64,000 nucleotides of DNA. Source: Eledone cirrhosa (Eukaryota). This document shows, piece by piece, positions 5,627-35,131 of the stretch. The notes below the pieces were generated by a model. It did no database searches. It saw only the letters and a program-made list of their open reading frames with translations, and was not told the DNA's origin. The stretch covers positions 161,138,001 to 161,202,000 of the forward strand of contig OZ024741.1 of assembly GCA_964016885.1 (NCBI GenBank), in the 5' to 3' direction. The position numbers were made by a program, and so were the translations under genes. The stretch's first letter is position 1. Each line of letters starts with the position of its first letter.

Positions 5627-5692
<66 letters not shown>

Positions 5693-5695
<3 letters not shown>

Positions 5696-8600
5696 GGAAA
5701 AATTTGAACAAGGACAAAACAGAGAGGCAGTACAACGAATGTTTATTAATTTCACGCTCTGGAGAGTGGGGTGTTGGTGGGGGAAGACGTTTCGGCCATA
5801 AGCCCTTCCTCAGGTGGGAAGTGTGTGGGACAGAGTTCAAAGGGTGTGTAGGGGAGTGGTGGAGAGACATATAGCGAAAGGAAACGGTGCGAATGAAAAA
5901 ATAAAAAATAAAGATAAAAATAAAAATAAAGCATGATCAAAATACAAGGAATGAGATAAATTTAAAAATAAAGGCATGATCAAAATAAACTGAAATTAAA
6001 AGGGGGGTAAACAGGTGGTGGAAGGGTGTGGGGTGCGTAGGGGTGGTGGCGGGTGGAGTGGGGAGAGGGAGACGGGGTGTCCGAGCGGGGAGGGCTGAAG
6101 GTGGTGTGTGTGTGTAGGTGTGCGTGTGTGTGTATGTGAAAGTAAGGGTTGGGGGAAGAACGGGGTTGCATGTTCAGGAAGAGGTGTGTGTGTGTGTGGG
6201 GGGGGGTCGGAGTGTCTGTGCGTGTGTGGATAGAGGGGTGGGGGTGGAGAGGAATCAGGAGGCTGAGGGTGTAAATATGTGGTGGAAAGTACGTGTGTGT
6301 GGGGTTTAAGCGTGTTGTGGGTGTAGGTGGCGTGTGGAGAAAAATTTTTTTTGGGGTGTGTGTGTGGGTGAGTTATATAGGTGATTACGTAAGAGGATGG
6401 TTGAAAAGTTGGTAAATTCTGAAGATGTTTAGTGGATTGGTTATTGGTCAATTTCTGCGTGTGGGTATTCCATGAAGCGATGGTCGGAAGAGGAGAGATG
6501 TGGGGTGCGCGCGCAACAGGAAGTGGTCAGCAGTGGGAGTGCTGTGGTCTGTTTGTGCTGGGAGGTGGTCAGAGGGCATAGCAGCAGTCGGTGGAATGGT
6601 AAAGGGGCGAGGATGGGTAGGTGTGAAAGTTGGAGTGAGGAGGGTGTGTGTGTGTGTATTAGTAGGGGTGTTAGTGGGATGAGTGAGTGTGGAGCGAGGG
6701 TGTGGGTGGAGCGGGGAGAGAAGGGTGTGTGTGGTTCTATGGAGGGAGTGTGGTGTACTGGTGTGTGTGTAGTTTGATGAAGAGGTGTTAGTGGGTGTTA
6801 GTATACGGGAGGTGGGGAGGGGTTGAATGCAGGTGTGAGTGGGGGTTAGTGGTGGTAGGGTGTGTAGAGTTGGTGGTGTACGAGGGTGTGTGGGTACGTG
6901 TGCGTGGGGTTGGGGGGTGTTAGTGATGTTAGTTGCGTGTGGGGTGGGTGGTGTAAGTGGGTGCGTGTGTTCGTGTGCTTGGGGTTAGGGGTGTTAGTGA
7001 GGTTAGTTGCGGGGTGGTGGGATGGAGGTGTGGGGGTGAGAGGTGTGGGTGTGAGGGTTAGTGGTGGTAGTAGGGTGTGTGTTTAGTGTGAGCGCGTGTA
7101 TATATGTGCCGGTGGGTGTGTGCGTGTGATAAGGAGGGGGGAGGAGGAGAAGAGGGATGTTAGTATGTTAGTTGGGGAAGGGTGGTCAGATGGGGGGTGG
7201 AGTGGAGGTGTTAGTATTGTTAGTTGTGGGGTGGGCGGTGAAAAGGAGGGGTGTGTTAGTGGTGTTAGTGGGGGATAAGTGTGGGGGGAGGGGGCGGTCG
7301 AAGGCTAAAGGAATAAGGGTGGGGAGTTCAGGCCGGGGGGAGTGTGGGTCTGTAAGAGGAAGATAGTTCGTTGTTCGACCGTAAGGCGATTGGCGGGTGT
7401 TCCGTGACACTGGAGTAGGCCACAGACTGTGAGATGGTGTGCGGAATGTCCAGGGCCACCAAAGTGGCGGGCGATGGGGGAACTGCCCCCGAGACGAATA
7501 TCCCGGAGGTGCTCCGTGACTCGGTCCGCCAGGCGACGTCCCGTCTGTCCGACATAAGTCCGTAGACTAGGTTGGAGGAGGTGCAGCGGAAGGCATGCCG
7601 GACCGAGAGAGAGTGGCCGTTGGGACCCTGGAAGGTGTTGGTGATGTGGGGACAGGTGTTGCAGCGGGGCCTAGAACAGGGAAAGGAACCGGGGGGAGGA
7701 AACAGAGCGTGGGTTGGGGGGTAGGGAGCTGTGGACGAGGAGGGTGCGGAGATTGCGTGCGCGTTTGAAGGAGGGGAGTGGTGGGGTTGGGAAGATGTGG
7801 GAGGTGGAGGGGTCGGACTGGAGGCGTCGGAAGAGGCGGCGGATGGTGCGGTGGAGGGGTAAGGTGGAGGGGTGGTAGGTGATGGGGAAGGGGAGACGGT
7901 GGGTGGGTGTGCGGTGGCATGGGGTGAGGGTGGTGGAGCGGGGGACAGCACGGGCGCGGGTGAGAGCGGTGTGGACGAGAGAGGGGGGTAACCTCTGCGG
8001 ATGAAATGGCTGACTAGGGAAAGGGCCTGGGACTCAAAGTCAGCATCACGGCTACAGAGGCGGCGGATCCTGAGAAGTTGGGAGTAGGGAATGGAGTGTT
8101 TAGTGTGGGTGGGGTGGGAAGAGGTGAAGTCGAGGTAAGAGTGGGAGTCGGTGGGTTTGAAGAAGGCGGAGGTGACGAGGGAGTGGTGGGAGGGGTCGAA
8201 GGCGACGGAGATGTCTAAGAAGTGGACGTGGGTGGTGGAGATAGAGGTGGTGAAGTGGAGGGAGGGGTGGAAGGAGCAGAAGAAGGAGAGAAAGGAGTCG
8301 AGCTGTTCTCGGGTGAGGGTCGTGGCTCCGATACAGTCGTCAATGTAACGACCGTACAGTTCGGGCGTGGGGCCTCAACATGGCCAACAAAAAGGTTGGC
8401 ATAGTTCGGGCCCATTCTTTTACCCATGGCTACCCCTGTGACCTGTTGGTAAAACTCACCCGAGAAGGAGAAACAATTCAGGGCGAGGACCAGCTCGGCG
8501 AGGCGAAGGAGGGTGGGGGTGGAGGGAATGGGGGAGGGGCGAAGGTCGAGGTAGTGTTTGAGGGCGCGAAGGCCGTCGGCGTGGGGGATGACTGTATAGA

Positions 8601-10352
8601 GGGACTTGATGTCTAGGGTGAAGAGGAAGGGCTGTGGGCCGGGTGGGTAGGTGAAGGAGTCGAAAAGGCGCAGGGCGTGGTTGGTGTCGGAGATGTGGGA
8701 GGGGACGGTGGTGACAAGGGGGACGAGGAGGGAGTCGAGAAAGGCGGAGATGAGTTCGGTGGGGCAGTTGCAAGCGGAGACGATGGGGCGGCCGGGGTTG
8801 TCGGGTTTGTGGAGTTTGGGGGGAAGCGGTGGGGGGAGGAGGGAGGAGGCGATAAGGTCTTTGATGGTGGAGGAGACTTGTTGTTGGTAGAGGGGGGTGG
8901 GATCGGAGGGTAGAGGGCGGTAAAAGAGGGGGTTACAGAGCTGCCTGAGGGCTTCGGCCGTGTAGAGGTCCGCGCGCCACACCACTACGGCGCCTCCCTT
9001 GTCCGCCGGTTTGATGACGATGTCATCTCGGCTACGGAGGGAGCGGAGAGCGAGGAGTTCGCCCCGTGAGATATTGTACCGTTTGGAACGGTGGCGGAAG
9101 TCGAAACGATTTACTTTGCTACGGCTGGCATAAACGAAGGCGTCCAGGGTGCTAAATTGTCCTGGGGCCGGCGTCCAAGAAGATGGTCGTCGGCCCAGGG
9201 CGAGAAACGGGTCTGGGGCGTCCGGAGCCGGTGGCGTTCGGCCGAAATGTGCCTGTAGCTTAGTGCGTTGCACGAATCGCTCGACTTCCGTTCGGGTGCG
9301 GAACTCGTCGCTGTGCGGAGTGTGGGGTATGAAGCGAAGGCCTCTACTAAGGAGTGAGCGCTCAGGTGCGGAGAGGGGGAGGTCAGGGGGTATGGTGACA
9401 ACAAGGGGTGGGGTTTGGATGTTTGGGGGGAAGGGAGGGTGTGGTGAGGGGTGAGGTGGAGGGTGGAGATTGGGTAGGGGTGTGGGTCGAGGGAGAGGTG
9501 GCGAGTGGTGGGCGTATGAGGATGGGCGGGTGGTGGTGGATGGGGGGAGGGGAGGGAGGGAGTGAGTGTAGCTTGCGGGCTTTGGTGGAGCTGAGGAACG
9601 AGAAGAGGTTGTGGTTGAGGTTTTGGATGAAGGAGAGGATGGCTTGGGCGAGGAGGGGGTGGCAGGTGGAGTTAAGGCGGAGGAGGGTGGGGGTCAGTTG
9701 GTGGTCAAGTTGGCGGAGGGTGGAACGGGAGGCGCGGATGGAGTTGCGCATCAGGAGGCGTGAGGATCGGGTGAGGATACGTTGCGTGGAGGGGGAAGCG
9801 GCGGAGGAAGGGTGGAAGTGTAGACGGAAGCCGAGAGGGATAAGGTGGAGGCGGAGGCAGTGGCTGAGGAAATGGATGTGGCTGGAGTGCCGGGTTTTGG
9901 CGAAGAGAAGGTAGGAGAGTTGAAGGGCGGAGGGGAGATAGCAGGGTGGGAGGAGGGGGTGAGGAAAAGTTTGAGGCGATTATGTAGTTGGTGGAGAAAG
10001 GATCTCAGGTTGGGCATGATGGGCGTTGGGTGAAAGCAGGGGGAGGGATGAGAAGGCAGGGGTGTGAAGCGGGGTGGAGTGAACGAAGGGGTGAGTGCGA
10101 AGGATAGGCAGAGACGGGGAAGGGAAAATGAAACAGAAAAACGTAGGGAGGAGGGAGTAAACACAGGAAAATTAAAGACAAAAAATCATAAAGGTAAAAA
10201 CACAGGCAAAGAATCTTATACGGAAAAAAACAAGTACAGTAACAAAATCAAACGGAGGTAATGCGTGGAAGGAAAGACCAAGTGTGGGAAGGTGTGTAAA
10301 GTTCGGAGAAAGGTCACGGCGGATTAGATCGGGGTTGAGCCGGTAGTTAAGT
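5693..10352 (-). mobile_element. Penelope-like retroelement, Neptune type (RT plus C-terminal GIY-YIG), frameshifted
   Basis: RT motifs IKPADKGGAVVVW, PKLHKPDNPGRPIVSA, LDIKSLYT and GVAMG in 8215-9273. Cys linker CSRPRCNTC and GIY-YIG start F.CTSSNLVY (~7690-7560). Long C-rich 3' region. (TA)n on both sides. Confidence 0.9.
5786..5816 (-). ncRNA. Minimal PLE-type hammerhead motif at the 3' end of the Neptune element
   Basis: Minus strand reads CTGAGGA ag ggc ttatg gcc GAAAC GTC. Helix I pairing is not evident, so it may be inactive. Confidence 0.55.
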
Positions 10353-10659
10353 TATATATATATATATATATATATGTAGATAAATCTACCAAAAGTTTAC
10401 GGTAGTGTCCAATCCGTATGAAGAACTCAATGTAATCCGGATATCCGGATATATATATATATATATATATATATTTAATACAATAACATAGATAGTTTAA
10501 AGCTAAACTCTGACTGGTAACCATCTCATTCAACAAACATAAGGTTATATTAAGATATAAACCCAATTTAAGTGTTTGGGGTACTAACAATATGTATAAT
10601 GTGGAAAAACCAGTTGTATTATTTTATGAGATATAATTAAAGTTAAAGTATATCTCTCT

Positions 10660-10785
10660 TTCCAAACAATTGTTTCATTATAAGTTTTCTACAAGTTTGG
10701 GAGAATGTTTCCAGTTTATGTAGAAGCCTAATATATATTCATGTAAGAATATATTTAGGTGGGCACTTATAAATCGTCAGTGGAA
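10660..10785 (-). ncRNA. Type I hammerhead ribozyme with expanded helix II
   Basis: Minus strand reads ttcca CTGACGA t ttataagt [two hairpins] acttataa t GAAAC aatt GTT tggaa: 5-bp helix I, 8-bp helix II base, palindromic AATT loop III. Confidence 0.8.
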
Positions 10786-11657
10786 GCCCATGAAACATTG
10801 ATATAAGAAAACAAATTTCTTACCGCTGTCAAAAATCATGTCCGTACAGTAGCTCTCTCTTACCTCGAATGACCGCCAAATTTGAAATTCCAGCAGTTTT
10901 TGACTGAGGAAGTATCATAGCGACACGAAGCGGGAAGGGGAGACAACCCACGAAATGAGGAAAAAAATAATATACACGCGGGTTAATTAGTTTTCTTTAA
11001 AACATTATCAATCCGACGTGTTTAAGAACTCAATTGAAAATAAAAAAATAAATATATGCTTGTATAAATTACACACGCATATAGATATTTTCTCAGGCTA
11101 AATCAGAAGTTGTACCCGAATAAGAACCGCTTCTCATAACTGCAGTAAATGCAGAAAGTTATGCTATAAAGGGCAAATGGGAATATAATTCTCCGGCCGA
11201 ATTAAGAGTAAAATATAAAACACACGCGGGTTAATTAGTTATTTCAAAACCAATATCAATTCCTCGTGTAAAGAACTCAATTAATAAAATAAAATAAATA
11301 CATATATGCATGTAATTATATACGTAGGCATATATATATATTTTCTTAGGCTAAAAAACAGAGAAGTTACAACCAAAAAAAGCCACAATATTTCACAACA
11401 GTAATAAATACGGAAAGTCAAATTCATAAGGTACCTGGAAATAAACACCTCTGGCCAATCAAGAGTAAATATTTAATACAATAACAGAGATAGTTTAAAG
11501 CTAAACTCTGACTGGTAACCATCTCACTCAACAAACATTAGGTTATATTAAGATATAAACCCAATTTAAGTGTTTGGGGTGCTAACAATATGTATAATGT
11601 GGAAAAACCAGTTGTATTATTTTATGAGATATAATTAAAGTTAAAGTATATCTCTCT

Positions 11658-11783
11658 TTCCAAACAATTGTTTCATTATAAGTTTTCTACAAGTTTGGGA
11701 GAATGTTTCCAGTTTATGTAGAAGCCTAATATATATTCATGTAAGAATATATTTAGGTGGGCACTTATAAATCGTCAGTGGAA
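11658..11783 (-). ncRNA. Type I hammerhead ribozyme with expanded helix II, second copy
   Basis: Same sequence as 10660-10785. Confidence 0.8.
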
Positions 11784-11981
11784 GCCCATGAAACATTGAT
11801 ATAAGAAAACAAATTTCTTACCGCTGCCAAAAATCATGTCCGTACAGTAGATCTCTCTTACCTCGAATGACCGCCAAATTTGAAAATATATATATATATA
11901 TATAACGGAGGAAATGTGGTAAGGAACCAGGTGGACCATAACGCACCAAAGTACTCAATACTTAGGGTAGTAGAGTGGGTA

Positions 11982-12105
11982 ATAGGAACGAGTAGGACCC
12001 CGACGGCTGAGCTCAAGCCGTTTCGACGGCTAATTCTGGAATTAAGTCCAGAATTAGCCGTCGAAACGGCTTGAGCTCAGCCGTCGGGGTCCTACTCGTT
12101 CCTAT
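11982..12105. repeat. Perfect 59-bp inverted repeat (6-nt loop) made of two HHR 3' halves
   Basis: Arms 11982-12040 and 12047-12105 are exact reverse complements. Each reads GAAAC ggct tgagctc agcc GTC ggggtcc. Homologous to 53656-53770. Confidence 0.9.
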
Positions 12106-35090: not shown

Positions 35091-35131
35091 CGATGCTGAC
35101 GATAGCTAATAAGCTTGAAACTAGTACATCG
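35091..35131 (+). ncRNA. Minimal type I hammerhead ribozyme, intact
   Basis: cgatg CTGACGA t agct aata agct t GAAAC ta GTA catcg: perfect 5-bp helix I and palindromic ACTAGT helix III. Confidence 0.85.

Follow-up and report, generated by a model that had tools for sequence, protein, structure and literature searches.

The animal non-LTR retrozymes described to date are non-coding, low-GC tandem units that carry one type I hammerhead each, occur as dimers to multimers and are found together with Penelope-like elements (PMC7229834; bioRxiv 10.64898/2026.07.22.740005). Their units typically measure 170–400 nt, within a range of 51–972 bp whose largest member is the one of 972 bp, and their origin as Penelope derivatives has already been published (bioRxiv 10.64898/2026.07.22.740005). 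Coral, mussel and axolotl retrozymes have been shown to yield circular RNAs (PMC7229834), and in vitro cleavage failed in 8 of 9 dimers of Xenopus retrozymes (bioRxiv 10.64898/2026.07.22.740005). Hydra-clade Penelope-like elements, treated by Craig et al. (2021, PMC8557442), display a partial-tandem pseudo-LTR, 5′ truncation, a hammerhead near the 3′ end and a (TA)n target, and non-autonomous Chlamys elements such as MRC1 form head-to-tail copies (PMC8557442). The role of the hammerheads in Penelope-like elements is described as unclear in that paper. The LTR retrozymes of plants (Cervera et al. 2016, PMC4918200) have a pair of hammerheads placed in direct repeats that surround a non-coding centre, with a predicted RNA of 600–1,000 nt.

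The locus described here, at 10471..11885 on the minus strand of a 64,000-nucleotide stretch of Eledone cirrhosa contig OZ024741.1 (hereafter the window), shares with the animal retrozymes the non-coding, low-GC tandem units, the type I hammerhead motif in each unit, the dimeric to multimeric copies and the company of Penelope-like elements; with the Hydra-clade and Chlamys elements it shares the copy layout, the hammerhead position and the target just named, and with the plant ones the two hammerheads in direct repeats, the non-coding centre and the predicted RNA size. The retrozyme class itself is already known. We consider it probable that this locus belongs to the animal non-LTR retrozymes: a 1.42-unit, 5′-truncated member of a tandem family that is abundant, encodes no protein and bears a type I hammerhead motif. 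Its insertion into TA microsatellites was likely carried out by a Penelope-like reverse transcriptase and endonuclease that are probably of the Hydra clade. The transcripts would be cut by dimeric hammerheads, and priming at a fixed site would be followed by copying through the cut position, most simply on a circle, with a few stops at the cleaved 5′ end. Sequence comparison lends good support to its classing as a non-LTR retrozyme of Penelope type.

Structure of the window copy and of its genomic family

Two direct repeats of 417 bp (10471-10887 and 11469-11885) are offset by 998 and differ at 6 of 417 positions (98.6% identity), in agreement with a sequence-only reading that had put their identity at about 98.5%. 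In RNA sense, the locus consists of a full 998-nt monomer (10471..11468, minus strand), whose fixed 3′ end at 10471 adjoins a TA run, preceded by a 5′-truncated partial monomer (11469..11885, minus strand) that corresponds to the last 417 nt of the unit and forms the pseudo-LTR. The fixed 3′ end meets an (AT)13 run (10449..10474), the presumed insertion target, and an (AT)9 run (11886..11904) borders the truncated 5′ end. The longest ATG-initiated ORF of the circularised unit has 48 aa and its GC content is 31%, so that the unit has the low GC and lack of coding capacity of animal non-LTR retrozymes. The centre of about 580 bp that the sequence-only reading had described as non-coding holds no longer ATG-initiated ORF; it is not unique sequence, as it holds an older internal tandem duplication of about 250 bp at 72% identity (10962..11480, with halves 10962-11222 and 11210-11480). 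This duplication may account for the size step from older monomers of 680–740 nt to the present 998 nt. Elsewhere in the window, positions 11906-12105 hold an abundant TA-associated repeat with a near-perfect inverted repeat of 124 nt (62 blast rows in the fetched loci), to which a piece at 53635-53722 is related, and 56801-64000 is taken up by a microsatellite array, rich in TA, that spans at least 7.2 kb.

We searched the 3.0-Gb assembly (1,796 contigs) for related copies. The DNA search returned 2,613 candidates, of which 40 were scored, with full-length matches at 94–99.6% identity on many contigs. A 19-mer spanning the predicted cut has 2,396 exact matches, as compared to 0 for its reversed control. 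The family comprises at least two thousand elements without protein. One copy, L002 (G000:C2:161067498-161068913), lies 81 kb away on the same contig, and its 99.6% identity and identical flanks identify the two loci as a segmental or haplotype duplication. Taken by itself, this pair would suit a local tandem duplication or an assembly artefact as the origin of the repeats. Thousands of dispersed copies with different flanks refute such an origin for the family, and the head-to-tail junction 11468->10475 also occurs in Logan contigs from runs X1-X3, which stem from a single sample that may have been the one used for the assembly; we give this explanation virtually no weight.

The copies share a fixed 3′ end and have scattered 5′ ends. 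In three sets of loci the 3′ end falls at monomer position 990 or beyond (24 of 26, 27 of 30 and 19 of 19), followed by a TA run in 23 of 24, 27 of 27 and 18 of 19 cases, respectively. Of the 19 other best loci, 16 have monomer sequence beyond the point where the window copy stops (position 1415), and the upstream partial unit of other copies ranges from 411 to 1367 nt. The length of 417 bp is therefore accidental, being set by the 5′ truncation of this particular copy. Head-to-tail arrays reach three or more units, up to >3, in L055, L056 and L192, and two exact 19-mers 730–1,009 nt apart were counted by hand in 12 of 88 loci among the first 100 matches listed. The family is thus tandem, dimeric to multimeric and dispersed, as are animal non-LTR retrozymes. 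Since a full unit is joined to a 5′-truncated one, with a fixed 3′ end and variable 5′ ends, the layout of the window copy is that of a Penelope-type pseudo-LTR, as in non-autonomous Penelope-like elements. A retrozyme-type unit had been proposed from the sequence, with a genome search for copies, multimers and an autonomous partner as its check: the copies and the multimers were found, and no autonomous partner with shared sequence appeared among the loci tested. At L013, the truncated 5′ end adjoins a right flank of tRNA-like sequence, possibly a tRNA or a SINE.

A true LTR retrozyme or TRIM-like element, with 417-bp LTRs regenerated by the machinery of an LTR retrotransposon, would agree with the 417 + 581 + 417 arrangement, which matches the 300–400-bp repeats and 300–600-bp centre of plant retrozymes (PMC4918200). 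The variable upstream repeat and the head-to-tail multimers speak against it, as does a hammerhead of type I, and we regard this possibility as very improbable. By eye we saw no polypurine tract before the 3′ repeat, and no tRNA-Met primer site after the 5′ repeat when judged solely against the TGG start that marks such sites. No 4-bp target duplication is discernible either; both flanks are TA runs, which would conceal one. The likeness to plant LTR retrozymes put forward in the sequence-only reading is accordingly abandoned.

A type I hammerhead motif with a branched stem II

On the minus strand, each repeat contains in order the 5′ strand of stem I (UUCCA), the core CUGACGA, a 97-nt stem II domain, the stretch GAAAC-AAUU-GUU and the 3′ strand of stem I (UGGAA). 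The downstream motif (10649..10805, minus strand) is composed of a distal stem I (10805-10800/10654-10649), a proximal stem I (10785-10781/10664-10660), the core at 10780-10774, the stem II domain (10677..10773) and GAAAC-AAUU-GUU (10676-10665), with a predicted cut at 10665/10664. The upstream motif (11647..11803, minus strand, core at 11778-11772) is identical to it over the motif and would be cut at 11663/11662. The two minus-strand hammerheads that had been read from the sequence, with GUU cuts 998 nt apart, are thus borne out at the sequence level as a non-canonical motif. The RNA predicted between the cuts (10665..11662, minus strand) has 998 nt and 31% GC, and its circular fold has a z-score of -3.6 against a set of only 12 shuffles.

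The departures from the canonical hammerhead are a U.U at 10.1-11.1 and GUU as cut triplet. Helix III has one C-G pair beyond A15.1-U16.1 and is closed by a palindromic tetraloop. The U.U is a known functional, tolerated variant (PMC3088659, PMC7229834) that is also present at the base of helix II in axolotl HHR_Amex2, and a palindromic loop III is likewise found in axolotl HHR_Amex1 (PMC7229834). Stem II rises from the U.U through an 8-bp stem to a three-way junction with two hairpins, and it is probably this 97-nt junction that caused the Rfam models to find no hammerhead, either at gathering score or at E<=10. A pattern search with stem II limited to 60 nt missed the motif as well. As compared to animal non-LTR retrozymes, each unit therefore has a type I hammerhead by sequence and structure, with an atypical stem II. 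Further hammerhead-like motifs were noted in the window at 35096 (+), 33889 (-), 33474 (+), 29610 (-) and 58987 (+), the 35096/33889 pair also having U.U at the base of stem II.

Identity within the family decreases to about 66–68%, and five subfamilies, A to E, can be recognised. Subfamily A (about 960–1,010 nt) and subfamily B (730–742 nt) have an AAUU loop; subfamily C (about 720 nt, 73–79% identity) has a GAUC loop; subfamily D measures about 680–700 nt at about 70% identity; and subfamily E (about 66–75% identity) has a G10.1-C11.1 closing pair and GUA. A GAUC-loop 16-mer common to C and D has 428 matches. The core is kept in 41 of 42 motifs from the 20 best loci, and in a 30-locus sample chosen on the 3′ half only, the recurrent change within CUGANGA is at N7 (C, U or A). 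In subfamily E (29 loci, 8 of them unparsed and 4 without anchor), G10.1-C11.1 occurs with GUA in 14 of 17 parsed motifs, one of the 17 being mis-parsed. This canonical closing pair fixes the register of the hammerhead.

To examine stem II, 30 sequences were picked, of which 6 could not be parsed and 24 were folded. The branched form is the minimum-energy fold of the isolated domain in 23 of these 24 sequences from subfamilies A to D. RNAalifold on the 24 sequences recovers it too, with two-sided changes at 9 of 40 pairs that represent few independent lineage events; proximal stem I was not predicted in this alignment. Within subfamilies A and B alone covariation was not significant, 36–58 of 500 shuffles reaching the observed values. 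A single subfamily E copy (L202:1425-1800) has lost about 72 nt, which leaves a compact hairpin of canonical form in place of the branched stem II; being one copy with a deletion, it was rejected as an ancestor of the compact-hammerhead kind. In a limited check of open-access literature, neither this family nor a hammerhead with a naturally branched stem II turned up; within that literature, a branched stem II in a natural hammerhead appears to be previously undescribed.

Minimum-energy prediction does not yield the monomeric hammerhead: a proximal stem I pair has a probability of 0.0006 in the window copy and of 0.075 in L033, a typical copy of subfamily A. In the window copy, a change at 10792/11790 (in both repeats), private to L001 and L002 among 20 loci, creates a competing helix, which in the folding model counts against the activity of this copy's hammerhead. 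We also considered a helix sequestering GAAAC as a conserved switch and rejected it, as it depends on this private change. The loop III palindrome differs between subfamilies, GAUC or AAUU, and is always self-complementary, with predicted 8-bp duplexes of -10.0 and -6.4 kcal/mol, respectively. Palindromic loops III are a signature of hammerheads that cleave as dimers (PMC4209133, PMC7229834), and the conservation of such a loop therefore predicts dimeric cleavage. We consider hammerhead cleavage of the family transcripts likely.

Truncations at the predicted cut site and possible re-use of the template

The predicted cut lies at position 804 of the 998-nt monomer, and the fixed 3′ end is located 194 nt downstream of it. 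Priming at the fixed end of a linear cut-to-cut monomer would therefore leave only 194 nt to be copied. A 22-mer located just after the cut has 2,295 matches, 1,889 of which also carry the exact 12 upstream bases. Of the 10 exceptions among the first 100 matches listed, 2 are truncated no more than 2 nt from the cut, 3 are GAUC-loop copies and 5 are point mutants. From the matches and the exceptions so classed we estimate that about 98% of the copies run through the cut, which calls for a circle, an uncut RNA or template jumps.

Truncations abutting TA were tallied by hand in the 17-nt interval 791–807, giving 39 distinct cases among the 100 listed of 169 rows. Their starts fall at 805 (12), 803 (7), 804 (1), 806 (2), 807 (5) and 791–801 (12). 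Hence the predicted cut is the precise start of 12 of the 39, and 20 of 39 start there or at most 2 nt upstream, an excess with a binomial p of about 2e-6 for these 39 listed truncations against a uniform expectation, which overstates it because TA microhomology strongly shapes the truncation points. Indeed, a TATA-like stretch 11–17 nt downstream of the cut is the stop point in 20 of 40 loci. Comparison of positions 803–805 with the similar A/T triplet at 799–801 gives 20 to 5 (p = 0.002). The excess of 5′ ends at the cut is likely a footprint of cleavage, as supporting rather than decisive evidence.

We then compared the units of 39 tandem loci, after setting aside 12 that were duplicated or overlapped. 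Between units of the same locus, 49 rare variants are shared, versus 17 with the nearest other locus; only 18 of the 39 loci have an internal distance that does not exceed the distance to the closest other locus. Shared private variants fit the copying of one RNA unit more than once, on a circular or re-used template, and later gene conversion or a homogeneous tandem source would explain them too. Variants distinguishing upstream from terminal units, a possible trace of a tandem master locus, were absent from the 39 loci apart from alignment edges.

These data bear on the question of whether a circle is involved. The same non-autonomous Penelope-type element could instead spread from linear, mostly uncut tandem transcripts, or by repeated template jumps on one RNA, with a hammerhead that rarely cuts, as in Chlamys MRC1. 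The passage of almost all copies through the cut would then be expected, and the copies beginning at the cut do need a linear 5′ end; moreover, the hammerheads of Penelope elements cleave weakly in vitro (PMC4209133), and Naiad and Chlamys elements that have no hammerhead also form pseudo-LTRs and head-to-tail copies (PMC8557442). We nevertheless judge a mechanism without a circle unlikely: the core, the stems and the loop III palindrome have been kept across about 30% divergence, the coral, mussel and axolotl retrozymes do form circles (PMC7229834), and the trace of a tandem master locus is missing. On balance we lean slightly towards circularisation of the monomer RNA as the simplest source of the read-through, and a circular 998-nt monomer is plausible.

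In the favoured retrozyme mechanism, tandem transcripts would be cut by paired hammerheads and reverse transcription would be primed at the fixed site 194 nt downstream of the cut, usually reading through the cut position for 0.2 to >3 units. The reverse transcriptase and endonuclease of a helper would insert the product into TA microsatellites, and a small share of the cDNAs would stop at the cleaved 5′ end. As a more tentative extension, which we put forward as a possibility only, the dimer-cleaving hammerhead with branched stem II would release a RNA of about 1 kb that becomes a circle, on which a Hydra-clade reverse transcriptase/endonuclease primes 194 nt past the cut and rolls for up to several turns; the few cDNAs made on unligated RNA would stop at the cut, and the three-way junction of stem II might serve the helper protein for docking or control instead of aiding catalysis.

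Candidate helpers and relation to known systems

Dependence on a Penelope-like reverse transcriptase, suggested in the sequence-only reading, is plausible from the (TA)n target and the pseudo-LTR structure of the copies. Through an ORF beside the retrozyme in L056 we came upon family A, a Penelope-like family of very high abundance. Its 719-aa frames contain RWK, DKT and CxCX5C, the motifs by which the Hydra clade, whose target is (TA)n, is diagnosed (PMC8557442). Hydra-type elements gave 55,913 candidate matches, which suggests that they fill a very large share of the genome. The hammerhead of a second Hydra-type family, B, is compact and agrees with that of the retrozyme in its U.U and its GAAAC-AAUU-GUU; a family B-like pattern has 3,887 matches, and family B dominates among those listed. 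The likeness to family B is limited to this shared 13-nt ribozyme half and the U.U. Hetero-dimers between the retrozyme and family B were rejected by reasoning, as their stem I strands are not complementary.

The Hydra-type elements comprise at least two families (L087-L090; L111, L105 and L118), and in the family with 719-aa open frames, 5′ pieces occur in inverted form and the long stem II of the hammerhead is closed by A.G. Other short-stem hammerhead families ending in (TA)n, with loop III GAUC or AAUU, were observed at L203-L230, L092, L095, L119 and L120. Two loci with matches 2.7 and 7.7 kb apart (L051 and L052) were discarded as partners, being local duplications around unrelated LINE-like fragments.

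No alignable link to the retrozyme was obtained for Hydra families A and B, the GAUC-loop compact hammerheads or the flanks of subfamilies D and E, and blastn linked it to none of about 90 loci fetched by Hydra-type protein or compact-hammerhead patterns, a sample covering few of the genome's families. A homolog search with the Hydra ORF returned 1,384 proteins, of which the 120 listed were unnamed except for one 'hypothetical protein', and Pfam matched 0 of 4 proteins. Within the window, positions 5690-10350 (minus strand) hold a frameshifted element with a DKG motif, a YIDD reverse transcriptase and, at the C-terminus, a GIY-YIG-like stretch, which we take from these motifs to be Penelope-like. 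It lies in the same orientation as the retrozyme and just downstream of it, carries a (TA)33 tail as well as a compact motif resembling a hammerhead at 5813, and shows no sequence similarity to the retrozyme. Since this DKG-type neighbour also ends in (TA)n, assignment of the helper by its target is weakened. A Hydra-clade Penelope-like element is the best candidate and probably the helper, by likeness of target and ribozyme only.

A young family with thousands of copies in five subfamilies, in which the surplus of 5′ ends at the cut can be counted, makes the role of the hammerhead testable from genome data alone. Furthermore, since the branched stem II escapes the Rfam models, and probably the usual short-stem descriptors, similar retrozymes may be undercounted in other invertebrates.

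As opposed to plant LTR retrozymes, this family has a hammerhead of type I and not type III, repeats of variable length and a microsatellite target. It differs from Hydra-clade and Chlamys elements in having no ORF, and the 3′-end similarity to an autonomous family that is usual for non-autonomous Chlamys elements was not detected. Among animal retrozymes, it is set apart by the absence of homology to an autonomous pseudo-LTR among our searches, by its strict insertion at (TA)n and by a stem II that is a three-way junction of 94–97 nt in place of a short hairpin. Its monomers of 680–1,010 nt are also long, and the sequence-only reading had contrasted them with shorter animal monomers; the contrast holds in that about 1 kb is at the top of the published range, and not in the sense of being far outside it.
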